Shown here piece after piece: positions 4,552-43,180 of a DNA stretch of 64,000 nucleotides (positions are counted from its first letter, which is position 1; every line of letters starts with the position of its first letter). A program made the translations under genes and the position numbers. The stretch comes from Eledone cirrhosa (Eukaryota): the NCBI GenBank assembly GCA_964016885.1, contig OZ024743.1, positions 352,036,001-352,100,000 on the forward strand. Direction: 5' to 3'. The notes beneath the pieces were generated by a model, which saw nothing but the letters and a program-made list of their open reading frames with translations, did no database searches and was not told the DNA's origin.

Positions 4552-6783
4552 ATCCTAAAATAATTAATTTATCTAAAAGAGATCTTGACAATGATGAAAT
4601 GCAAATTCTGTCAAAAGGACTGAAATTCACACCGACTCCAACAGTCAACCACCAAGAACTGAAGGAGGATACCCAAGAATTCTGTCGAAAATTACGTCTT
4701 GTAGAATTCTTCGCTGATAAAAATAATGAGAGTGATGAATCACTAGTAAAGAATAAATCAAATTTCACTCCGCCAAAAGGAAGAAATATTTATCTCGACC
4801 AATACATTGACATCCTGTCTAAATTTCCTCTTAGACATAATACTAATGTTAGGCCAAACATTAACAAATCAGAAATGTCTGCACTTAAACGTATACAAAA
4901 TGATAAAACAATAATAATTAAACAAGCAGATAAAGGGGGTGCAGTTGTTATAATGGATACTGAATACTACAAGGATTTGGTTGAGGAACAACTGAAAGAC
5001 ACAACATTCTATCACGAAATACCGTCAAATATAGACCACAACATCATGAAGAAGATCAACAACCTGGCTTCAAAATACCACAACTCATTTACTGATAAGG
5101 AAAGAGACTACATCACCAATTTTGAGCCGAAACCCAGCAACCTGTATGGCCTACCGAAAGTTCACAAGTCAAAAGAAATACAACTGGCAGTAAGAGAACA
5201 AAACAGTGAGTACATTAAATTATTACACCCAAAAGACTTAAAACTTAGACCTATTATAGCTGGTCCAACATGCCCCACTCACCGTCTAAGCAATTTTGTT
5301 GACATTATTTTGAAACCACTATGTATTCACATACCCAGTTTCATCCGGGATGATATCGACTTCCTGTTCCATCTTCCCAAAACCACGGAAACGAATTCAC
5401 TTCTACTCAGTTTTGATGTGGTAAGCCTTTACACCAACATTACACATGATTTAGGAATAAAGGCGGTTAAATACTGGGTGGAAAAACAGAGAAGTGATTC
5501 CCATTAGATTCACAGCGCCATTTATATTAGACGCAGTTAAACTTATTCTGGAAAACAACACTTTCTTCTTCAATGGAAAGAATTACATCCAAATTAGAGG
5601 CACAGCGATGGGAACGAAGTTTGCTCCCGTTTACGCGAACTCTGTAATGGGATACTTAGAACAACAACTCTACCAAGAAATAGAGGAAAAATATAGTACT
5701 GACTTTAGAAAGTACATTGAAAAATCTTGGAAGAGATACCTTGACGACTGTTTCATCATCTGGACAGAATCTCTAGATACTCTGGATGAGTTCAATATCC
5801 TCCTGAATAACCTACACCCATCTCTCCAATTCACAAAAGAGATGAGTAGGACCAAATTACCATTCCTAGATATAATGATAATCAAAAACGACACCACCAT
5901 TACCACGGATATATATTATAAACACAGAGACACCCATCAATATCTGAATTTTAAGTCGTGCCATCCACCTCATACAAAACGCAACATCCCATACTGCCTA
6001 GCCAGAAGAATTTGTACCATTGTAGAAGATACGAATACCAGGTACAAACGCCTAACAGAACTAAGAGAATTTTTGCTCAAACAAAAATACCCATCTCTAC
6101 TTATAGAAAATGGCATACAGCGGGCTATAAAAATACCTATACAACAACTTAGAACAACCCAAGGAAGAAGAAACCAAGAACTGGTCATACCATTTATAAT
6201 GACACACAACCCATGTCACCAGAATATATTCAACACTGCCAAAGCAAACCTACCGATCATTGCTCAAAGTAATGAATTAAAAGGCTTAATCACAGATCGA
6301 TCTTTCACTCTTAGTAAAAGACAGCCAAAAAATTTGAAGCAATTGCTAACAAAAGCAAAGTTTGACCTTAACAACAAAGACCAATCATTCACTGTATCTA
6401 AATGCAATGATAATCGATGCGGCACATGTCAATCCATACACGCCGGTCAATATATGAAAACAAAAACTGGAAAAATATTCCCAAATGCAAATATGAACTG
6501 CAAAAGCAGAAATCTAATTTACTGCATTAAATGCCCGAATTTTGAAGAACTATATGTCGGTCAAACTGGAAATGCACTATCGGAACGTGCACGGGTACAC
6601 CGTCAACAAATCAGAGACCCAAATGTCCGTCAGATACCCCTAAGCGGCCACCTGGCAACATGTGGTCAGGGAATATTTATAATATTCTCATTCTACAAAT
6701 TACACAGCCCTAGTGAAATCAAGAGAAAAATCAAAGAAAAGAATTTTATTGATAAATTCAAACCCAAGCTAAATGAACAATAA
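4458..6783 (+). pseudogene. Penelope-like RT + GIY-YIG endonuclease ORF with one internal frameshift (~5490-5507)
   Basis: ORFs 4599-5507 and 5494-6783 together form one PLE RT/EN. The frame opens at 4458 and contains the IINLS motif before the first ATG. Confidence 0.88.
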
Positions 6784-13612: not shown

Positions 13613-16527
13613 TTATTCGAGGTTCGTAGATGTCGGAGAGATGCGACATTCAAATGTTGTCTGGACTGATGTTAGACCTCTGCCTCCCTGCTTACGTTTC
13701 AAGTAAAGGCGGTATATGTCAATGTTGATGTGGAAGTTTCCGGTGTTGTTCAGTATTTTTCGAGTTCCAACATCAACTGTTCGGATTTCATCTATCGTCC
13801 AATTGAGAATTCCAAACGTTGGTGTTAGGACAGGCACAGCAAACACATTGTGAGCCACTGTTTTGTTTTGCGCAGAGAGTTCCGATGACCAGATCTTTCT
13901 TAATCGGGTGTAGTATTCCCTGGTTACGCGTTCTTTATTACAGATACATTTAATGGATATGTTCTCATCTATACCCAGGTATCTGTAGCAGTCCTCATCA
14001 GATATCGGTGAAACAGTTAGACCACTGATGACAATGGTGCTAGATTGGGTTGTTTTTTTTCCCCACTTTACAGTCATGTATGGGCATTTATCTGGGCCAA
14101 ACTCCATTCCTATATCCTTTGAGAACGTTGTAACCAGGTCAAGATTTTTCTTCATCCCATCCATGTTCTTGGCAAAGAGTTTCAGATCGTCCACAAAGAA
14201 ATTATGGGTTAGGTTCGTATTTATGTCTTCCTGTGAGCCAATGATGTATCCCTCACATTTCTTGAGCAGAAATGACAAGGGCTTTAATGACAAGATGAAT
14301 AATATCACAGAGAGACTGTCCCCCTGAAATATACCCCTGCAATATTTTATTTTATCAGTGAAAATAGAGTCCTCCTTCTTTGTCTTTAACCTTAGGATAG
14401 TAGCCCAAGAAGAAGACAGCCTCTCTATGGCTCTGATAATAATGTCTGGGACTTTAGCAAGTTGGAGGGCCTCTATCATCCAAGAGTGGGGAACAGAATC
14501 GAAAGCTTTCCTGTAGTCCAGCCAGACTGTTGTCATATTCCTCCTAAGTTGTCGCACCTCCGACATCGCAGTTTTGTTGATTAGGAGTTGTTCAGCACAT
14601 CCCCAAACCCCTTTCTTTCCAGCTGCTTGTTCATCTGTGATGATGTTATTATTTTCACAGTGATCTTGGAGGAATAGGTTCAGGCAGGCTGTATACATCT
14701 TATACATCAGGTTCTGGCATGCAATGGGTCGGTAGTTTTTTTGCCAAGTGGGTGTCTTTGTTCTTGGGGACCAGTAACGTTTGTGCTAATGTCAACCATT
14801 CTGGTATAAGTGTATCTCCCTTAAGAACTTGTTGGTAGAGGTCAGTAAGATACCTCCGATAGAATATTAGTTTTTTGTACCAGTAGCCGACAATCATGTC
14901 TCTTCCTGGTGTTTTCTTATCTTGGAGTTTTCCTATCACAGTCTCAAGGGTACCCTCACTTATTTCGTGTGTTTTTGTTGTAGTGTAGGAGCAATAGTTC
15001 TTTCGGATTTCTCTTAGCCACACAGCATCTTGGTTGAAATTCTTCTTTTCACCCCATATTTTTCTCCAAAAGGAATCTATGTCTTTCTTGGAATCTATGT
15101 CTTTCTTTCTCAGCGACACTTATTATTTTGCCTTTCATATCTCTATAGACTGATGTTTGGTTTCGTCTGAATCTTTTATTAAGCATTTTCCTCTCATCTA
15201 CCTTCTTCAGGTATCAGCGTTTTTCGCTAACAGCTCTCAATTCTTCTTTGAGGGTGATCAGCCTATATTGGAGAGTTCTGGTTCTACTGTTACCAAACAT
15301 CGTCTCTATTTTATTTTTCACTCTTTGTTGGTGAGGAGTGAGGTTTTTTGTGTTTGTTTGCATGTAAGGAGCATTGTCACATACATGTCCTATGTTTTTT
15401 CGTAGGTCAGCACTCTTTTTTTATTTTAGTTATATATGATGGTATTTTTGGTGGTGTTTTGTTCTTGTTAATATCTCTGCTATCACCAAGATAATGCTTC
15501 ACTGTCATTGCTAAGGCATATAAACAGGCGTTGATTTGCCAAAATGTTGGGGCTTTTATCCGTCGTAAATATTCATCCCCTATTTCGTCAATAACACGTA
15601 GTATTTCATTATTTGGTTTTTATTCACCATTGTCATTTTAACACGTTCAGCAAGAGAGATATTTATACATGAGTTAATTTCTCTCTGGAAGATTTCGTTG
15701 AGGGAAATTTTCAATTGTTTATACTTTTGATTATCATTATCGATAGTATTTTCCACAACAGTCGAGGTAGACTCGGATGGTATACGTGGTGTCACATTTA
15801 TTCGATTATTATTATTATTTCTTCGATAATTATTATTATCGATAGTGTTTTCCCCAGAATTCGAAGTAGACTTAGATGGTACAGGTGGTGTCAAGTTTCT
15901 TACAGGCATAGTTGGTTCAAGGCACTGTTCGCCCTGGCTGCTAGGGAGTCTAGTAGCATGGTGATCTGTAGCATGTGTTGTTGATTCCATGTTTGTTGTG
16001 GGGGATTTACGATTAATAATATTTATCTTATTTTTACGTTCAACAAACGTCGCTTGTTGGCGTAATTGTTTCGCTGTGAAATAATTTAGCTCTGGGTGCA
16101 TTTCGTCCCAGTGTAGCTTCATTCTATTCATATAGCCAATGGAGGGATTGTTTTTTGCCATTTTATAACAATTAAATAAATCATTATTAAGTTCGCAACT
16201 CCAAGAGAAATGCGTTTTATAATTTCGGTTTCTTCTGTAGCTACAACTGAATACAGTTTGATTACCTTCTTTGTTATTTGTCTTCGATACTTCCTTATTT
16301 TTTTGTTGATGTGTTCAGCCATGCTGTTTGTAGAAAATCCTTGTAAAATGAATTATGTATTTAGTCGGATTTCTCTACGAATTCGAATAAAAGTTGTCTT
16401 CAGAAGGGATAGTTAGAAGAATAACCAGTTATTCAACCGGGCTGTAGTTGTGGCATTATTGTCGGAGATAGTATTCATCTTAAATTTAATAAATAGTCTC
16501 CCACGCCAAAATATGCGACTGATCGCG

Positions 16528-19499: not shown

Positions 19500-21300
19500 T
19501 TGCTTTACTCAATCTCTGAGGCCAATGCACTCTACGACCACTACGAGTCGTCGTAACATATGTTGGTGAAGGTAAGGAAGGTGTGTGTGATGTTGTGGCT
19601 GAGTATGCTCGTGAAGGTTCAACATGCAATGTATTGTATGTGGGGGTGTATGGGATTCAACTGGTGGAGCGTTTGTAAAGGCCTGTTTAATCCTATCTAC
19701 TGAAACTGTGTATTTCCTACCACAAACGTCTATGGTAGGGTCCTGTATAGGGTGGTACCAGTGGTCCTTTCACTGAGTCTTTACGTAGAAAAACGTGAGT
19801 CCAAGAAGTAGTGTTTTTAGGAACCGAAGCTTTAATTGTCTGTTGACGTGTTCCCATAGGCTTAAGATCATTGAAATATGATCGCAATCGGTTAATATAT
19901 AACGTAGGATCTTCCCGTGATGCGTCGACTGTGACTAACATCTGTCCCGGCAAGGATGAAGGTGTTCCGTACAGCAATTCCGCTGGGGACTATCCGAGAT
20001 CCCCCCTGACCGCCGCGCAACAGCCAAGAAGAACAATTGGTAGATATTCACTCCATTTTTGCTGGTCGGGATAAGCACGCAATGCTGCTTTTAATTGTCG
20101 ATGAAAGCGTTCTATCATGCCATTTGACGCCGGATGGTAACTATAGTTCTAATACGATGTATCCCTAAAATTTTAGAAAGTTCATGGAAGAGATGTCATT
20201 CAAATTGTCCGCCACGGTCAGTGGTGATCGTGGAAGGGACACCGTATCGCGAAATCCAGCCAGACATCAGAGCTCATGCTACCGATTCTGCTGAAATCTC
20301 TTCGAGAGGAATGGATTCAGGCCAACGTGTAAAACGGTCGATACACGTAAGAAGGTATGTGTATATCCATGGCTGACCGGCCAAAGTCCAACTAGGTCGA
20401 TATGAATATGGTCAAAGCGGGCATATGGAGCGTTGAATGTGCCCAGAGGTGCTCGAATGTGTTTGTGCACCTTAGACTTCTGGCAAAGTATGCAGGAACG
20501 AGACCATGCAGTGATATCTCGTCTCATATTTGGCCAAAAGAATCTAGCCGTAATGAGTTTCACTGATGAAAGGATTCCAGGGTATGAGAGGTTGTGTAAC
20601 GTGTCGAAAACTGTTCGCCGATGAAGTTCCGGAACGAAGGGTCGAGATGAATCAGTCGATATGTCATACAGGATGCTTGTGTCAGAATTGTGTAAAGGTA
20701 ATTGTTTGAATTTGCACGTCGCAATTTCGGTTGCAGCTAAATCCAAATCGTCCAAAGCAGGCTGGTTAGCAACGAGCAAACGTAGATCAATATCGGTTTT
20801 TGTCGATAGTGAGTTGATAAGTAAACGAGATAATGCATATGCCGCTAAATTCTGTGATTCAGGAATATGACGTATATCACTAGTGAATTGTGATACATAA
20901 TCTAAATGTCGAGTTTCACGTGGCGAGTATCTTTCGAGTTTCGCTTTGAGAGCAAATGTCAAAGGACGATGGTCGGTGAAAATCGTAAACTGGCGTCCTT
21001 CCAACGAATGCTGGAAGTGTTTGATTGCCAAGTACATCGCTAACAGTTCTCTGCCGAAAGTACTGTATCAGGTTTCAGCGGGTTTAAGTTGTGTTGAGAA
21101 ATATGCAAGTGGTTGCATACTCTAATTGTGATACTGTTGCAAAACTGCACCTACTGCTGTGCTTGATGCGTCAACGACCAGTGAAAACTGGGCATCAGGC
21201 ACAGGATGTGCAAGCAGGGTGACATCAGCTAATTCCTGTTTCACTCTGGAATAAGCTTCGAGGTGAGCAGGGTCTAAAGAAATAGACTCGTTTTTGGCTA
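19500..21300 (-). mobile_element. Ty3/Gypsy pol remnant (RNase H, integrase with GPY motif)
   Basis: LVVDASSTAVGAVLQQ, FTIFTDHRPL, HHCC-like region (H..RFFWPNM..C..CQKSK), [31 protein letters not shown]. Several frameshifts. Confidence 0.9.
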
Positions 21301-32446: not shown

Positions 32447-34319
32447 TACCTGGTTGATCCTGCCAGTAGTCATATGCTTGTCTCAAAGCTTAAGCCATGC
32501 AAGTGTAAGTTCATGCCGTAAACGAATGGTGAAACCGCGAATGGCTCAGAAACCGGACCTAATCCTCGGGACCGTATTCCTCACCGCGAGGAGAGTGGAT
32601 AACTGTGGCAATTCTAGAGCTAATACATGCAACTGAGGCCGCGATCGCAGGTCGCACCCGGGAGTCGGGTTACAAACGCGCTCAGCGTTCCATCGCTGTC
32701 GTCGTTCCGTCTTCCCGCGCGGTCCCAACAGATCGCGTCGACACGGTCGGCCTTTGCATTGGTCGCGGCGCAAATATTAGACTGAGACCGACGACGCGTT
32801 AGATGCCGTCAGCGCCGTTCGCAGTTCGCTGCGTGCCGGTTGCGCGGTGTCGCGCATCAATTCGACTTTGGTGACTCTGGATAACTGTCAGTACGATCGC
32901 ACGGGCTTAGAATCGCTTCTGGCCTTCGCGCGACGGGTCCCCCGCGAGTCCGCCCTATCAACTGTCGACGGCCCGGTAAGTGCCGACCGTGGTGGCAACG
33001 GGTAACGGGGAATCAGGGTTCGATTCCGGAGAGGGAGCATGCGAAACGGCTACCACATCCAAGGAAGGCAGCAGGCGCGCAAATTACCCACTCCCGGCAC
33101 GGGGAGGTAGTGACGAAAAATAACGACGCGGGACTCTGTCGAGGCCCCGCGATCGGAATGAGTACACTTCAAATCCGTTAACGAGGATCGACCGGAGGGC
33201 AAGTCTGGTGCCAGCAGCCGCGGTAATTCCAGCTCCGGTAGCGTATATTAAAATTGTTGCGTTTGAAAAGCTCGTAGTCGGAATTCGGGTCTCGAAAGCG
33301 CGCTGCGTCGTCAGCGCGTTCGGGGCGACGGCGCCGTTGTCGTTCGCGCGCCGCGCGTCGACTTCGGTCGTCCGTTCGCACTCCCGGCCCTATTCGCCGG
33401 TGCGTGCGCGGTCGGGCCGCAGAGCTCTGCGTGCATCGCCGCTCGGCGTCACGGTGCGGACGTCGCGTTTTTACCTTCTTGCCACGCTTCTTGCCGTTCT
33501 TCTTGCCTATTTTCCTTTCCGCGTTCGGGGACGATGCGACGACGGCGCTTTTGCTTTATCGCGGGCGTTTGCCGTTCGCCTCTCGTTTTCGTTGCGGCGC
33601 TCCGGTCAGGGTTTGGAGTGTCGTCTCGCTTGGCTATTCGGTCGGTTCTTACGTCGTCGTGCCGTCACCTCGCCGCGGTCGCGCGTTCACCTCGCGGTTT
33701 TGTTTTTCTCTCCCTGCGCGTTTGCCTTTTTCTTTTCGAAAGGAGAGGTTCGTCGTCGCCAGGGTTGGATACGACGGCGTGATCGGTTTCGTCGTCGCGT
33801 CGTCTCGGCGCGTCGCTTTCCTGCGGCCGCCGTTTTGTCGTCGCGCGCGTCGTTCCGTTTCGCCGCCGATCCGCACGGTTCCTCCGAGGGTGCTCTTTAC
33901 CGAGTGTCCGAGGCGGCCGGTACGTTCACTGTGAAAAAATTAGAGTGCTCAGAGCGAGCCGCACCGGCTTGCATACGAAAAACATGGAATGATGGAAAAT
34001 GGCCTCGTCCGCGCGTCATCCGTCGGTCTCCGTTCACGACGAGGCAATGATCGAAGGGAGCGATCGGGGCCACTCGTATTGCGACGTTAGAGGTGAAATT
34101 CTTGGATCGTCGCAAGACGCACTGCAGCGACGGCGTGTGGCAAGCACGTTTTCCTCGATCAAGAGCGAAAGTCGGAGGTTCGAAGACGATCAGATACCGT
34201 CGTAGTTCCGACCGTAAACGATGCCGACTGGCGCTCCGCCGGCGTTCGCTTCGATGACCCGGCGGGGAGCCTGCGCGGGAAACTATAGTCGGTTCCGGGG
34301 GGAGTATGGTTGCAAAACA

Positions 34320-34365
<46 letters not shown>

Positions 34366-35074
34366 GCGGCTTAATTTGACTCAACACGGGAAAACTCACC
34401 CGGTCCGGACACCGGTAGGATTGACAGATCGATAGCTCTTTCTCGATTCGGTGGGTGGTGGTGCATGGCCGTTCTTAGTTGGTGGAGCGATCCGTCTGGT
34501 TGATTCCGATAACGAACGAGACTCCGGCCTGCTAACTAGCGCGTCGATTAGTGCTTTTCCGGTAGCGTGGCGGCGCCGAAGCCGTCGTCGGTAAGCTGTC
34601 CTGCGTTCGTTTTTTTTCCCTTTTTCTTCGAGCTCGGGCTTCCGTTGCCGTTGCCGTCGTCGTCGCGTCGTCGTCGTCTTCTTCTTTCGCGAGTTCGCTT
34701 GCGGAATGGAGGAATGAAGGCAGCGCTGGCGGAGGCGGCGGTCGGTTTTTCGGGCTCGGGAGGGGGGGACCGGCGCGATCAGCCCCGGCGTCGGCACGTC
34801 GTCGCGTCCGGGCCAGTCGGTTGGCGAACGCAGCGCTTCTTAGAGGGACGGGCGGCAGAAAGCCGCACGAGGCGGAGCGATAACAGGTCTGTGATGCCCT
34901 TAGATGTCCGGAGCCGCACGCGCGCTACACTGGAGGTATCAGCGGGCGCCACTCCCCCGGCCCGAGAGGGTCGGGAAACCTCTGAACCACCTCCCGTGAT
35001 AGGGATCGGGGCCTGGAACCAACCCCGTGAACGAGGAATTCCCGGTAGGCGCGGGTCATCAGCCCGCGTCGATC

Positions 35075-35117
<43 letters not shown>

Positions 35118-35260
35118 CGAACGGTCCGGTGAGGTCCTCGGATCTGGCCGACGAGTTCGCAGGCCGTGCGGCGGCGTTTCGATTCGGCCGTCAGGTCGGT
35201 TCGTTGCCGTCGTCGGTGCGCTCTCTGATGGCCCGGAGAAGACGACCGAACCCGATCGCT

Positions 35261-35318
<58 letters not shown>
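32447..35318 (+). rRNA. 18S rRNA (~2870 nt, strongly expanded variable regions)
   Basis: Starts tacctggttgatcctgccag, contains gtgccagcagccgcggtaattcc and gtacacaccgcccgtc, ends gaacctgcggaaggatcatta. Confidence 0.97.
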
Positions 35319-35849: not shown

Positions 35850-36010
35850 AACCCTGGACGGGGGATCACTCGGCTCGTCCGTCGATGAAGAGCGCGGCTA
35901 TCCGCGTGAACTGATGCGAATTGCAGGACTCAGTGAACATCGACACCTCGAACGCACATTGCGGCCCCGGGATTCCACCGTCCCGGGGCCCCGTCCGGTC
36001 GAGAGGCGGT
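35850..36010 (+). rRNA. 5.8S rRNA
   Basis: ggatcactcggctcg..gtcgatgaagagcgc...gaattgcagga...gaacgcacattgcggc. Ends approximate. Confidence 0.93.
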
Positions 36011-36609
36011 CACGATACAATCGCGATGTCTGCTGTTTCGCCATGCGCCGCCCGCTCACGAGAGTGAGAGATGAAAGAGAGAAACACATCCGCCTTTTGC
36101 GCTGCTGCCGCTGCCCGCCTTAGCGAAGCGCAGTTTCTTTTCTTTTTCTCTTCTCTTTTGCGCCATGGTAACAGCGGGAAGTCGGGAGTCGCAGAAGAAG
36201 CGAGAGTCGTCGCTCGCGGAACGCTCCGTCTCCCGTATTGAAATAATAACTAACACTTTTCGTCGTTATTTTTCTTTATTTCTCGCCGTTCGCTTCGGAG
36301 ATCGTCGCACGGAAAGAGAAAGATTTAGAAGAAGGGAAGACGAGAAGGGTAAAAAGAAACGCAGTAACACAGGCGCGGTCGTTGTTCGTCGGCCGGCGTT
36401 CGCTCTGCGAGTCGCCAAAAACACAAAGCGTTCGTGTCGGCCGACGAGAAACGATTTCGATTCCGCTTCTTTTTTTCCCATTTCTCTCGTCTTTTCCACA
36501 TTCCGCCTTGGCGCCCGCTCTATATCGCCAACCTCTTCTTTATCAATGCCGCCTTCTTCTTACCGTCCTCGTTCTTCGTATTCAGCGTATTCGGCGTATG
36601 CGAATAGCT
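36011..36609 (+). other. ITS2
   Basis: Between 5.8S and 28S. Confidence 0.85.
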
Positions 36610-38101
36610 GCCCTCGACTCGGACGCGACTACCCGCCGAACTTAAGCATATCGCTAAGCGGAGGAAAAGAAACCAACCGGGATTCCCTTAGTAACGGCGA
36701 GTGAACTGGGAGGAGCCCAACGCTGAATCTCGTCGTCCGCAAGCAGGCCGTCGAGAGCTGTGGCGCAAGGGTCGTACACGGTCGTTCGTTTCGCCCGGCT
36801 AGGTTCGGAGTCCCCTCGATCGGGGCTGCCCAAAGCGGATGCCAGGCCCATTCGGAGCCGGCGGCGGTCGACAGTGTCTCTTTCTTCGGCCCGAGAGTCG
36901 GGTTGCTTGGGAACGCAGCCCAAAGCGGGTGGTAAGCTCCATCCAAGGCTAAATACCGGAACGAGTCCGATAGCCGACAAGTACCGCGAGGGAAAGTTGA
37001 AAAGAACTTTGGAGAGAGAGTTCAAGAGACCGTGAAACCGCCCAGGGGTTAAACGGGTAGGACCGTTCACCGTGATCGCGAGGGGACTCAGTCCGCTGCT
37101 GTTTTAAGGCGCCGTCGTCGTCGGCGGCGGTCTCTCGTTTCGACGAGTCGACCGCCGACCGCCTCGCCGGCGTTACGATTCGCAGGGTGCCGGCATCGGA
37201 CGCACTTCCCCTTCGATCCCTCGTCGCGACCCGTTCCCGTCAGGCTGGATGGCGCGCGGTGTCCGCAGGTCGCAGAGCGGCGTCCCGCCTAGAAAACGAA
37301 CCATTCCCGGTTCGCTTTCGAAGCGGGTTTCCGAAAACAGCGCTTCTCTCGACCGGGCCCGTCGCTCGGCGGTGGTTTTCATCGTCCCAGGCACGGCTAA
37401 CAGGCGGGGACGGGACAAACGCGCGTGTTCCTTTATTAGCCGCAGCGCCGTTCGTATATGCTTAGGTTGGTTTTTTTAAATATCCTTTAAAATTTCTGAT
37501 CGGCTTTCGAGAAAGCGGCCGCCTCGTTCGCTCGCCCCGTTTGCTTTTTCTCTTTTGCTCTCTTTGCGGAGCAGGAGGGAGCGGGTCGCTGGGCGGACGA
37601 GGATCGCGAGCCGTCCGCTGCTGCAGGTCTGCGACGAGCATCGGCAACCTACCCGACCCGTCTTGAAACACGGACCGAGGAGTCCCAGTCGGTTGCGAGT
37701 CGTTGGAGCGAAAGAAATCGAATTTAACGAACTCCGACGGCGAAGTGAAAGCGAGAACGTGACGCGTCGTCGACGGCGGCGTTAGAGGCTGGTTTGAATT
37801 GACGGCATGCGGCATGGCCTTCGGGTCGTGTCGCTGTTGTTTTTTTCTTCTTTTTTCCGCGCCGTCGTAGGCGTTTCGAAGCATCGTTCCCGGGTCGGGT
37901 GTGCGCGTCGCGTGGCGGCTTTCGGGCCGTCGGCGCGGCGCGCTCCGACTCAGGTGTAGCAGGCGGCCGGGGACCCGAAAGATGGCGATCCACGCCCGGT
38001 CGGGACGAAGCCAGAGGAAACTCTGGTGGAAGTCCGAAGCGCCTCTGACGTGCAAATCGATCGTCGGAACCGGGTGTAGGGGCGAAAGACCAATCGAGCC
38101 G

Positions 38102-38144
<43 letters not shown>

Positions 38145-40166
38145 CGCCAGCAGCAGACAGAACGACACGCAATTCCGTCCGGTAAAGCGAACGACTGGAG
38201 GCCCCGGGGACGTTGACGGCCTCGATCTACTCTCGAACTCGGAACGGGCGAAACGGGCCGCTCTCTCTCCCGATCGGAGGCGGCCGCCGTCTCGGCGACG
38301 AATGCACGGTGCCAAGTGGGCCACTTTTGGTAAGCAGAACTGGTGATGTGGGATGAACCGAACGTCCGGCTAAGGTGCCCTACGCTTCGCCCATTAGATC
38401 CCCGAAAGGGTGTCGGTCGATATAGACAGCAGGACGGTGGCCACGGAAGTCGGAATCCGCTCAGGAGTGTGTAACAACTTACCTGCCGAATCGACCGGCC
38501 CCGAAAATGGATGGCGCTGGAGCGAGCGACCGATGCCGGACCGGCCAGGCGATAGGCGAAAAAAGGTAACACGACGTAACTTTCTTCGATGCCTGGTCGA
38601 GTAGGAGGGCGCCGCGGCGTGCACGGAAGCCGCGGGCGTGAGCCGGGGTGAAGCCGACCGCGGGTGCAGATCTCGGTGGTAGTAGCAAATATTCGAACGA
38701 GACCTTCGAAGACCGAAGTGGAGAAGGGTTCCGTGCCAACGGCGGTCGAGCACGGGTCAGTCGGTCCTAAGAAGCGGGCGAAAGCTTGTACGAAAGGCGC
38801 CGGATCCGTTGTCGAGAAAGAGGAAAAAAAAAGAAAAACCCCCCCTTTTTTTTTTTGGCTTCTCTGTTTTTGTTACGGCCGGCCTTGCATCGAAAGGGAA
38901 TCGGGTTAATATTCCCGAACCCGTACTCGGAGAGTGCTCGTCCGTCGGTGGAATTTAACGCGTCGTCGCGTCATCGAAGCCGGCGGTCGGGCGAAGCAGC
39001 GGCAACGCAAGCGAGCCCGGAGACGTTGCCGGGAGCCCTGGGAAGAGTTCTCTCTTCTTCGTAAAGGACCGCGTCCGTGGAATCGGCTCGTCCGGAGATA
39101 CGGATATGGTACCTGTAGAGCGCCGCGTCTCGGGCGGCGTCCGGTGCGCTCTCGGCGGCCCTGGAAAATCCGGGTCCGTAACGATTCGCAGCTCTCGAGT
39201 CGGTCCGTACCCACCATCCGCAGCAGGTCTCCAAGGTGTACAGCCTCTCGTCGATAGCGCCAATGTAGGTAAGAGAAGTCGGCAAAATGGATCCGTACCT
39301 TCGGAAGAAGGATTGGCTCCGAGGACCGGGTCGGTCGGGCCGTGTGTGTGTCGGCCTGTCGGCCGTCTTGTTGTTTTTTTCCAAAAACTCGGGATCGGTC
39401 GCGCGGCACGTCTGTACGCGAAGCGGTGAACCGGTACGGGGCTGTAGCGTTGGCGTCGGACTTGACGTTCGAGCGTCGGTCGGGTGGTCGATTTGCGCCC
39501 GTTTCGTTTGCGTTCGTTTCGTTTTTCCTTGCCCTTCTTTCGGTTGGCGGCGAGGAGAGAGAGGAAGAAGGCGGCGGCGGCGGCTGCGGGTTGGTCGCGC
39601 GGAGGCGGACGGGGTTTGTTGAAAGATTACCGCGGAGGAGGGATGAAGGCGTAGCAGTAGACGGGGGGAGAGGCTTGTCGCTCGCAAGGGCGGTTTGTTT
39701 TTTTTTTCGTTTTTCTGCTCGCTTTTGTTTTGTTCTTTCGGTTTTTTTTTCTCTTTCCTTTACTGTTCGTCGCAGTGCCGGCGGCTCGCGCGTCGTCGTC
39801 GTCTTTTTTTCTTCGTTTTCTTCGTTTTTGTCGGTCGGAAACAAAAACGGGGGGCTTGGAGAGGCGCTAGCTTGGCGTTGGCGAGCGGCGTTTCGGTCGG
39901 TTGCTTTTTGCGACGTTCGATGCGTAGTGGGCGCGAACAACACGGCTCCACGCCCGGGACACCGTGGAGCGACACGGTTTCGGGCTCGTTGGCGCGTCGG
40001 TTAGCTTCCTTTCTTTCTTGTTCGCGAGGAGGAGGGCGGTTGCCGAGACGCGCGGCAGGCGTTCGGCCGGCGGCGAACGGTCAACTCGAAACTGGTACGG
40101 ACCGGGGGAATCCGACTGTCTAATTAAAACAGAGCATCGCGTAGCCGGCCGAGCCGCATAGACGCG

Positions 40167-40198
<32 letters not shown>

Positions 40199-40214
40199 AG
40201 TGAAGAAATTCAAC

Positions 40215-40244
<30 letters not shown>

Positions 40245-40253
<9 letters not shown>

Positions 40254-40466
40254 GTCGGCGCTACCCTTGACGTGGGAAGAGAGCTTAAATCCGTGGTTAG
40301 AGCTGTACGAGTGAGTCAACTTGACGCGTACCTTTGGAAGTTTGACTCCTTTCGGAGGTTGGCGCCCTCTTCGAGGGGTCGGTTCCGGGGTGCGGGTTCG
40401 GGTTGGCTCGGCAGGTTTTACCATACTCGGTTGGTCTGCCACATTAAGGATGAACTAATTGGCGCC
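40245..40466 (+). ncRNA. Predicted HDV-like self-cleaving ribozyme spanning the 28S/insert junction
   Basis: P1 ctctctt/aagagag, P2 ggcgcta/tggcgcc, P3 ccc/ggg, L3 ttgacgt, long P4, J4/2 aCTAA. Pairing done manually. Confidence 0.6.
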
Positions 40467-41411
40467 TAAATTATGATTGTAATAATTATATAAAAATCAT
40501 ATATCCGTACGGTAGCTGGGGGCCGTTTTAAAACCAGTAACCGAGGGGTCGGGATGGGCCCCTTAGGTTTACTAACTGCAGCGGGCCGCTGTGGTGGCTC
40601 CATGATCATTACAGCGAACGTGATGGGATGTGGAGTCGCCGTGGTGGCTTGCTGTGGTACTTAACCACCCTCGAGGGCTGACAGGGAGCCGGGATACGCC
40701 CTCTGGATTAGAGCCGGCTCAAACCTTTTTTTTTTTTTTTTTTTTTGTCCTTGTTTTTTTTTGTGTGGGCGCGGAAGTGCCTGGAAACTCTCTTCCTAGT
40801 TTTTTTTTTTTATTAACTCGGTGAGCGGTCGGATATAATATCCGAGAAGGAAAAGTAAGACGTCTCCGCCGTTCCGCTAGTCTGGTGGTTCGCCTTGGGA
40901 AAGCGATAGAACCACCTTATCCCCCCGTTGCAGGGTTACGCGTTGCTTAAAGGAAAGTGCTTTTTTTTATTATTAACAGTTTCGTTAATAATATTTTAGG
41001 AATAGGAAGGGAGTGATGAAATGGCTTCTGGAGCGCCCCACAACTTTTTTTTTTTTTTTTTATAGAGTACAATGTACGGCCAGGGAGTTTGGAGCCTCCC
41101 TGTGCGGGATTCCGGCAACAGGATCTCCGCGCGGGGTTCGGTTCCGGTTGCTTACTTGGTGCGTACAACCAAGTAAGCAACCGGGAGGGCTTAGTGTCTC
41201 GCATGGCTCGCTCGCTGAGGTGGCTCCCAGCCAGCCCTCGCGGGGTCCATGGCTTGGCCTGCTCTCTTGGCGTGACCAACCAAATTTGACAGGGCACGCC
41301 GTTCATGCCATAGTTTGCTTGATGACGTTGGCCCGTGGGACCACCCACTTTAAAAAAAAGGGAAAGGCGGCTTATACTTTGCAAAAAGTATAAGTTAATA
41401 GCCAGCTAAAA
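40254..41411 (+). mobile_element. Non-coding insertion at the R2 target site of 28S (candidate non-autonomous R2, SIDE-like)
   Basis: Left flank gtaactatgactctctt, right flank tagccaaatgcctcgtcatc. Canonical AAGG is missing at the 5' junction. Ends in aaaa. No RT ORF. Confidence 0.82.
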
Positions 41412-41451
<40 letters not shown>

Positions 41452-41486
41452 CGGATCAACGAGATTCCCACTGTCCCTATCTACTG

Positions 41487-41521
<35 letters not shown>

Positions 41522-41528
41522 CGGATCG

Positions 41529-41568
<40 letters not shown>

Positions 41569-42138
41569 TTTTGTGAGGGCACACGGTAGGCGTAGCATAG
41601 GCGGGAGCAATCTTGCGTCTCTCGGCTGGCGGCAGCGTCGTTTGCGGGTCGCTTGCGGCTTTGCGGCGGCGTTCGCCGTCTGTCGGGTACCGTGCGCGTT
41701 TGCGTCGATGAAAAACCGCCACTTCCGTAGTTTCTTCGCTCACTCGATTGAGAAGGGACGGGGCCGTCGCCGAGCGGTGGTTCATTTATCTGGTGCGAAG
41801 CGTGCGGTGCATGTCGCGCGCGCACACGTTGTGCGCCGACGCAGCCGATGCGCGACCCTTAGTCGAGAACAGTGTCGGTCGGGGAGTTTGACTGGGGCGG
41901 TACGTCTGTCAAAGGGTAACGCAGGTGTCCCAAGGCGAGCTCAGCGTGGACGGAAACCACACGTTGAGCAAAAGGGCAAAAGCTCGCTCGATCTCGATTT
42001 TCAGTACGAATACGGACCGCGAAAGCGTGGCCCATCGATCCTTTCCGAATAGCGGCGAGCTATGCGTCCGCCGAGAGGTGTCAGAAAAGTTACCACAGGA
42101 TAACTGGCTTGTGGCGGCCAAGCGTTCGCAGCGACGTC

Positions 42139-42176
<38 letters not shown>

Positions 42177-43180
42177 CGAAGCAGAATTCGCAAAGCGTTG
42201 GATTGTTCACCCACTAACAGGGAACGTGAGCTGGGTTTAGACTGTCGTGAGACAGGTTAGTTTTATCCTACCGATGCATTGCGTGTAGGCGGCGGCGGTG
42301 GCGGCTGCAGCCACCTTCTCGAAGGCGGCTGCGGTCGGCGTCGCCGCCGGCAACGTCAACTCGGCTACGGCTATCCCGTCCAGTACGAGAGGAACCGCGG
42401 GATCAGAGCAACGGTTTGCGCGCTCGCTCGATAGAGCGGTGGTGCCAGGCTGCCTCTGAGCGATAACGGCTGAACGCCTCTAAGCCGGAACCGTAGCCGG
42501 ACCCGAGTTGTTTTTCGAAAGCGTCTCAACCTTCTTAAGGCGCATGCCTTAGTTTGGCGATTGCCGTCCGTTCGGCGAAGTCGCTTCCCTTTTCGGGGTG
42601 CGCGTCGTCGTCGGCGGCAGCGTCAGCGGAATTGCCATTCTGTGACGATTACGACGATTCGTCGTCGTTGTCGTCCGTTCGATTTGTCGAAAGAGATCGA
42701 GACGAAAAGGATCGCTTGTATACGACTCGACTTGCCGTTCGGAGTGACGTGCTTAGTAGAGCAGCTACCACACTGCGATCTATTGAGTCTCTTCTCACGA
42801 ACGACACGATCCGCCCACCGAGGCGGCAGACACCAAAAAAAAAAAAAGAAATTTGAAAAGCGGCTAAGGAAGGAAGGAAGGAAGGAACGAACGAACGAGA
42901 GATAGCAGCAGCAGCAGCAGCAGCTAGCGGGTTGGAGCAATGACTCGGTTTTCTTTCGACGGGTTAGCGTAGCAACAATGACGACGACGACATACAAACA
43001 AGTCCGCTCCTTAGCCGCCGCCAATTGTTAGGTTCGTTCTTTATTACACTTCCACCGCTGCTACTGCAAACCACCAACCACTTTCCGCGCGCCAACTTTT
43101 ACGACGATTTCGCTCGCTCGCTCGCCGCTCGTTTGCCAGGTTGCGCCAACGACCCTCAAGGTCGATTAGCATCGAAAATA

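Follow-up and report, generated by a model that had tools for sequence, protein, structure and literature searches.

A predicted HDV-like ribozyme with seven host 28S bases at the 5′ end of an ORF-less R2 derivative in Eledone cirrhosa

What is formed at the 5′ end of the insert that splits a 28S rRNA gene of Eledone cirrhosa, and does it free the insert from the rRNA co-transcript? The reading favoured here, at a probability of about three in four, is that the 5′ end of this 1156-nt, ORF-less R2 derivative is a predicted HDV-like ribozyme that includes seven host bases and likely cuts the co-transcript at −11 relative to the R2 site. Both R2 ribozymes built partly from 28S sequence and R2 SIDEs are already established.

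An R2 insert and its relatives in the genome

The window, which is the whole 64-kb stretch analysed from this 3-Gb genome, contains one rDNA unit, in which Rfam searches located 18S (32447–35318), 5.8S (35850–36008) and the split 28S gene (Table 1). Four nucleotides of the 28S target are absent at the 5′ junction of the insert, its 3′ end meets the downstream 28S precisely at the canonical R2 position, and it lacks an ORF (longest ATG ORF, 125 aa). The 18S (2.87 kb) and 28S (~5 kb) genes of the window have very large expansion segments, and a published cephalopod 18S primer found no match with up to three mismatches allowed (≤3). Retroelement fragments in the rDNA spacer of the window (5461–6783, 13613–14785 and 20279–21067) encode GIY-YIG domain, RT and RNase H/integrase pieces, and a large part of this spacer recurs after the rDNA unit.

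Table 1. Features of the split 28S gene, the insert and its predicted ribozyme (positions in the window)
Feature	Position	Strand	Basis or remark
Host 28S rRNA gene, split by the element	36609..42814	+	Rfam RF02543
28S hairpin rivalling P1 for the 5′ strand	40233..40251	+	−4.8 kcal/mol vs −7.4 for the P1 duplex
P1 5′ strand (host 28S −11 to −5)	40247..40253	+	7/7 Watson–Crick pairs with 40277–83
Non-autonomous R2 element (SIDE), 1156 nt, canonical R2 site	40254..41409	+	Rfam LSU alignment
J1/2 linker, 3 nt, varies among copies	40254..40256	+
P2 5′ strand	40257..40263	+	Several pair types at most of 7 positions
P3 (3 bp, 40264–66/40274–76) closing 7-nt L3 (40267–73)	40264..40276	+
P1 3′ strand	40277..40283	+	Same 7-mer in five other mollusc R2 entries
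J1/4: C40284 pairs with G40269 (flipped P1.1); U40285 opposite U40268	40284..40285	+
P4 domain, 169 nt, branched	40286..40454	+	Folding, alignment fold
J4/2, candidate catalytic C40455, conserved A40458	40455..40458	+
P2 3′ strand, probable one-base bulge after first pair	40459..40466	+
Segment from R2 family A 3′ region	40751..40945	+	74% identity to L029, L016, L018
3′ end from R2 family A 3′ UTR, precise join to downstream 28S	41275..41409	+	78–85% identity

A genome search with the first 466 nt of the insert gave 56 matches. Three insert copies on the contig, 39–40 kb apart, are 99.8–100% identical, which indicates that they arose by duplication of the inserted unit and is uninformative on current activity. 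The remaining full-length copies are 80–93% identical and lie mostly within 28S pieces. Longer elements of ~3.8–4.5 kb share the 5′ ~310 nt of the insert and two 3′ blocks at 69–89% identity. The ORF of the family A copy L029 matches solved R2 proteins (E 1.6e-114), including their zinc-finger and Myb regions, and the starts of the 995 aa ORF and of the nucleotide sequence listed for the octopod element R2-1_ECi in Table S2 of PMC13188248 match those of L029. The full-length relative of the window insert is assigned to this published element. As its ribozyme and 3′ UTR are homologous to those of full-length R2, its ORF is absent and it occupies the R2 site, the insert fits the R2 SIDE definition in the text of PMC3414825. 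The carrier of the putative ribozyme is thereby identified as a non-autonomous SIDE, which refines the earlier reading; its position, its lack of an ORF and its kinship to full-length R2 are direct observations.

The RTs of families A and B are ~60% identical, yet the ribozyme core is common to both. The family B copy L068, which lies in 28S and has a 1214-aa ORF, differs from the SIDE in its 3′ UTR. This element (L068:2075–7046) has an uninterrupted ORF, carries the atypical ribozyme core with a P4 that is shorter (100 nt), and is absent from the octopod rows inspected in the published table (PMC13188248). The RT matches included no family A element whose ORF is intact, the longest open frame being the 995 aa of L029. 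A search of sequencing runs listed three contig runs from one study and none of RNA.

Sixteen SIDE copies display insertion-type junction variation, with five J1/2 variants, duplications and one full copy outside rDNA; in 13 of the 16 an intact P1 strand adjoins the element. All 16 fall on a single branch of the tree (100/100), which argues weakly for one origin because the alignment included the P4 expansion peculiar to SIDEs. Screening of 16 further genome stretches for canonical-core R2 families returned two more SIDE copies and nothing else. The 28S downstream flank was fetched for 30 loci, and the 26 classifiable ones comprise one uninserted target, one short and unusual remnant and 24 loci with other 3′ ends, of which 17 are of SIDE/family A type; since the survey scored 40 of 122 candidates and rDNA arrays are under-represented in assemblies, these counts are not an insertion rate. 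At L108, L112, L114 and L106 there are R2-site 3′ ends unlike 28S, family A or B, for which 5′ ends were not found.

Several individual arrangements were observed. Family A, family B and SIDE elements stand in tandem at one target in L011–L014 (G000 C18, ~15.04–15.08 Mb), L009/L069 and L024. The family B 5′ end bears duplicated target, and other elements directly upstream part its ribozyme from the host P1 strand. A SIDE subfamily (L024, L026, L027 and L132) harbours upstream 28S sequence internally, at element position ~321, and in L024 a family B element is inserted there. Outside rDNA lie L008, a full-length SIDE that retains a 5-nt 28S remnant within a CA microsatellite, and L028:8705–8954 (− strand), an isolated ribozyme fragment that spans L3 to J4/2 and has a 15-nt direct repeat on its flanks. 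In the window, the SIDE middle (40660–41245) has long inverted repeats (40668–90/41222–44 and 40681–702/41082–103) and a perfect 17-bp hairpin at 41144–84.

The predicted fold and its covariation

The predicted elements follow the order of the HDV nested double pseudoknot, P1-P2-P3-L3-P3′-P1′-P1.1-P4-J4/2-P2′, as the earlier note had claimed, and P1, P2, P3, L3, J1/4 and C40455 all lie at the coordinates it gave. P1 directly follows P3′ and has 7 bp, within the 6–7 bp expectation for HDV-like ribozymes. Residues U40267 and G40272 of L3 correspond to the U20/G25 pair in CPEB3 numbering, G40269 stands in place of the usual C22, and an A is present three bases downstream of the candidate catalytic residue (C40455, A40458). 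The classical purine at +1, which would give an R-Y cleavage-site pair, is missing; the pair is C40247-G40283. Searches against the Rfam HDV-type families returned no match at E ≤ 10 or E ≤ 5.

An HDV descriptor written by hand, with any Watson–Crick pair admitted at P1.1, was run on both strands of the window and gave a single match, at 40247/40264/40455. It matched 0/5000 dinucleotide shuffles of positions 40200–40500 and, with the 10.4-kb rDNA unit shuffled, found 0.01 cores per shuffle, in a test that is mildly circular because the descriptor was written after the element had been seen.

The P4 domain folds with z = −4.4. From its base, it is predicted to comprise a 3 × 3 internal loop, conserved in 35/38 and 37/38 copies, the helices 40289–92/40448–51, 40293–96/40439–42 and 40308–12/40425–29, and a three-way junction from which a long, variable hairpin (40313–409) and a small, conserved one (40414–22) extend. 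Three of the four P4 helices proposed earlier have pair probabilities of 0.65–0.71, 0.87 and 0.70–0.87. The fourth, 40318–23/40412–17, was rejected, with a probability of 0.00; its bases pair elsewhere, in 40313–24/40398–409 (0.98–1.0, 11/12 pairs) and in the hairpin 40414–16/40420–22, and the alignment fold agrees. Double changes occur at 13 of 30 predicted P4 pairs among 12 sequences. As P4 spans 169–244 nt in full-length SIDE copies versus 65–142 nt in other copies, the long P4 is best described, from sequence comparison, as a peripheral hairpin that is expanded specifically in SIDEs and sits on a conserved three-way junction.

Covariation within this genome was assessed among 38 distinct copies, which are mutually related, include decayed and truncated ones and were extracted with a core-anchored pattern that favoured conserved cores. 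Each P2 position is paired in 29–34 of the 38, through several pair types, and at the base of P4 pairing holds in 33–37 with differing letters. P1′, whose partner is fixed host 28S, is nearly invariant, each position pairing in 36–38 copies. L3 is likewise conserved at U1 (38/38), G3 (37/38) and G6 (36/38), and the candidate catalytic C is found in 38/38 extracted copies, in part as a consequence of how the search was designed. P1.1 is G-C in 36/38 copies, the reverse of the usual C-G orientation, with an adjacent U-U in 37/38. Compensatory change in P3 and P1.1 was absent among these 38 copies. The P2 register first proposed pairs in the window copy, as does an alternative one; its last pair forms in 26/38 copies versus 33/38 for a register that uses the base four after the catalytic C and a one-base bulge.

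Outside this genome, R2 sequences were read by eye from rows of PMC13188248 Table S2, over the first 400 characters per entry. Within these, the 7-nt P1′ of the window element, J1/4 = CU, and an L3 that starts with UUG and has G at position 6 recur in R2s of Octopus vulgaris, O. sinensis, O. rubescens and the scallop M. varia. A C at +1 and a P1.1 of G-C plus U-U are common to the R2s of these four species. Their P2 strands pair through other letters, and the small hairpin of P4 can be made out in them. Where the window has C-G as its first P3 pair, the other mollusc R2s have G-C or G-U. In the R2 of the mussel L. fortunei, this P1′ goes with a canonical UCC in L3 and GG in J1/4 (C-G/C-G). This natural pair swap is the compensatory change expected if P1.1 forms and thus supports P1.1 from one species, the outside covariation of P3 and P1.1 together resting on five sequences. 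Obligate coupling of a C at +1 with the P1.1 flip was considered and dropped, as the mussel combines the same P1′ with canonical P1.1. In two squid or cuttlefish entries and a slug entry the core was not found within the first 400 characters, and the remaining R2s inspected in Table S2 have canonical cores.

Covariation, which the earlier note had named as a check on its proposal, is directly observed at two levels: P2 and the P4 base covary across the R2 families of this genome, and P3, P1.1 and P2 change compensatorily across molluscs. It upholds the earlier picture of an R2-type HDV-like fold with 28S as the P1 5′ strand, a swapped P1.1 and a first base other than G. The modelled HDV-like fold is regarded as real and confirmed. 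Because the flipped core pair also occurs in octopus and scallop R2s, it appears to be a conserved variant of a known ribozyme type and not a broken copy.

Cleavage site, proposed mechanism and alternatives

Cleavage had been placed ~11–13 nt upstream of the R2 site. Comparison of P1′ retains −11, between A40246 and C40247, and discards −13: in the −13-type R2s among the Table S2 entries (a sawfly and a bobtail squid) another 7-mer follows P3 immediately, and this sets the register of the window element at −11. Among the dispersed copies, six have a 28S-like remnant of 5–9 nt that in no case extends past −13; five others are cut or lack a remnant, and one keeps −9 to −1. HDV ribozymes are described as requiring a 5′ purine (PMC11331408), and CPEB3 activity is strongly reduced by G1 changes (PMC8233481), both of which count against activity here. 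Among fungal HDV variants, those whose cleavage-site pair is C-G do cleave, according to the text of PMC5640933. The −29 site of a springtail R2, given as confirmed in the text of PMC3774820, is C by target count, provided that its 28S matches that of the window. For the single P1.1 pair of CPEB3, the text of PMC9901934 reports compensatory rescue in pairwise mutagenesis and compensatory change in general.

By analogy with R2 ribozymes, we infer that the SIDE ribozyme would cleave itself. Pol I would transcribe through the insert to give an rRNA co-transcript, as the text of PMC3774820 suggests for R2. P1′ would then capture 28S −11 to −5 in competition with the host hairpin (−7.4 versus −4.8 kcal/mol), and C40455 would promote the cut before C40247. 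The released RNA would retain 7 nt of 28S and the 3′ UTR, to which a family A R2 protein supplied in trans may bind, leading to mobilisation. Seven nucleotides of 28S on the freed RNA would fit the precise, slipped and duplicated 5′ junctions and the five J1/2 variants.

It is unlikely, in our estimate, that the fold is real and cleaves poorly or not at all, acting as a protective or protein-binding 5′ structure while another nuclease makes the RNA end and copies spread by rDNA recombination. The C at +1, the weak P1.1 (G-C plus U-U) and the identity of the tandem copies would suit such an account, as would the argument that the fold stabilises R2 RNA independently of cleavage (PMC11331408) and the in vitro inactivity of some R2 folds in the text of PMC3774820. 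The 28S hairpin that competes for the P1 strand, which is present in the pseudoknot-free MFE, also speaks for it. This hairpin we take to be H69. Set against these points, the catalytic C, the U20/G25 equivalents and P1′ complementarity are kept in the octopod and bivalve R2s inspected, the P1 strand is intact in 13/16 SIDE copies, and the junctions vary as after separate insertions.

A self-cleaving ribozyme could also cut at G40245 (−13) through a 9-bp P1 with an A-C mismatch. This site is documented for Nasonia and Tribolium B R2 (PMC11331408 and the text of PMC3774820), G40245 could wobble with U40285, and one dispersed copy (L016) keeps the matching GA. Such a P1 is longer than the 6–7 bp of R2 ribozymes in the text of PMC3774820 and would consume both J1/4 bases, leaving no flipped P1.1; those ends are unpaired in duplex folding, in the mussel R2 entry an identical P1′ is followed by GG at these J1/4 positions, and the −13 G is absent from L017 and L132. 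Cleavage at −13 is accordingly rated as improbable. Least credible of all is that the pairings arose by chance, or that the insert is a group I intron or some other type of rDNA intron. The helices are short, the descriptor is post hoc, and the insert presumably lies near a known intron position; however, the descriptor matches 0/5000 shuffles, the Rfam search found no group I match, four target bases are lost, and homology at both ends ties the insert to elements with an ORF that matches solved R2 proteins (E 1.6e-114). The covariation among the 38 copies and the matching cores of the Octopus entries contradict this reading as well. Cleavage at −11 by an R2-type HDV-like ribozyme remains the preferred reading.

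Related systems and meaning

The element resembles the R2 5′ HDV-like ribozymes described in the text of PMC3774820 in position, topology, host-derived P1, variable P4, conserved L3 G and catalytic C, and both show junction duplications of upstream 28S. The sites named in that text are −9, −13, −25, −27, −28, −29, −36 and 0, unlike −11 here, and the C at +1 and the reversed P1.1 also set the element apart from the ribozymes it describes. Similarly, it shares with Drosophila R2 SIDEs (PMC3414825, text) an R2 ribozyme and 3′ UTR, the lack of an ORF, the R2 site, divergence from the parent and an unrelated centre, but is 1156 nt long versus 529 nt and resides in an octopod host. Furthermore, the predicted ribozyme depends on host 28S here, whereas it is fully element-encoded in the Drosophila SIDEs.

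The closest core is that of mammalian CPEB3, as given in the accessible text of 10.1101/2022.09.22.508989 and PMC9901934. In CPEB3, residues U20, U21, C22, A23, C24, G25 and U26 are accompanied by G37 and U38. The 7-nt L3 is the same at 6/7 positions, J1/2 likewise has 3 nt, and P1.1 in both comprises one Watson–Crick pair plus U-U. Unlike CPEB3, the element has G-C for C22-G37, C instead of G at +1, and a large, branched P4. Judged by sequence, the core corresponds to the CPEB3 core with its P1.1 pair reversed. The fungal HDV variants (PMC5640933, text) are alike in the C-G at the cleavage site and the A/G-rich internal loop at the P4 base; unlike them, the element has no extra base between P2 and P3 in the 5′ strand. 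In the fungal variants a loop E motif takes the place of part of P4, for which the 3 × 3 loop of the element is at most a candidate. That text does not put the fungal variants at the head of R2 elements, the position held by the predicted ribozyme of the window.

The main text of PMC13188248 mentions ribozymes twice and octopus or cephalopod never, and neither the SIDE nor this core is described in the passages and table rows covered. An R2 ribozyme with −11, a C start and flipped P1.1 was not found described in the literature covered, which was mostly open-access text. The same mostly open-access literature gave no description of a cephalopod SIDE, nor of this core among loop E or C-G variants in retrotransposons or cephalopod and bivalve R2 ribozymes.

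R2 5′ ribozymes set the amount of rRNA left on the template, and thereby bear on 5′ junctions and on template design for R2-based gene insertion (PMC11331408). The present insert extends SIDEs to a cephalopod. A conserved variant with −11, a C start and flipped P1.1 would widen the sequence space of HDV-like ribozymes and reveal what standard search descriptors overlook. Tentatively, and with the odds somewhat against it, the octopod R2s here and the octopus and scallop entries inspected may represent an undescribed, ancient HDV-like subtype that cuts at −11 before C, has a reversed P1.1 and uses the P4 three-way junction as a peripheral activator. If so, descriptors that demand a purine at +1 and C-G would overlook this ribozyme class entirely in animals, and the mussel and scallop R2s would form a natural test of which core identities matter.
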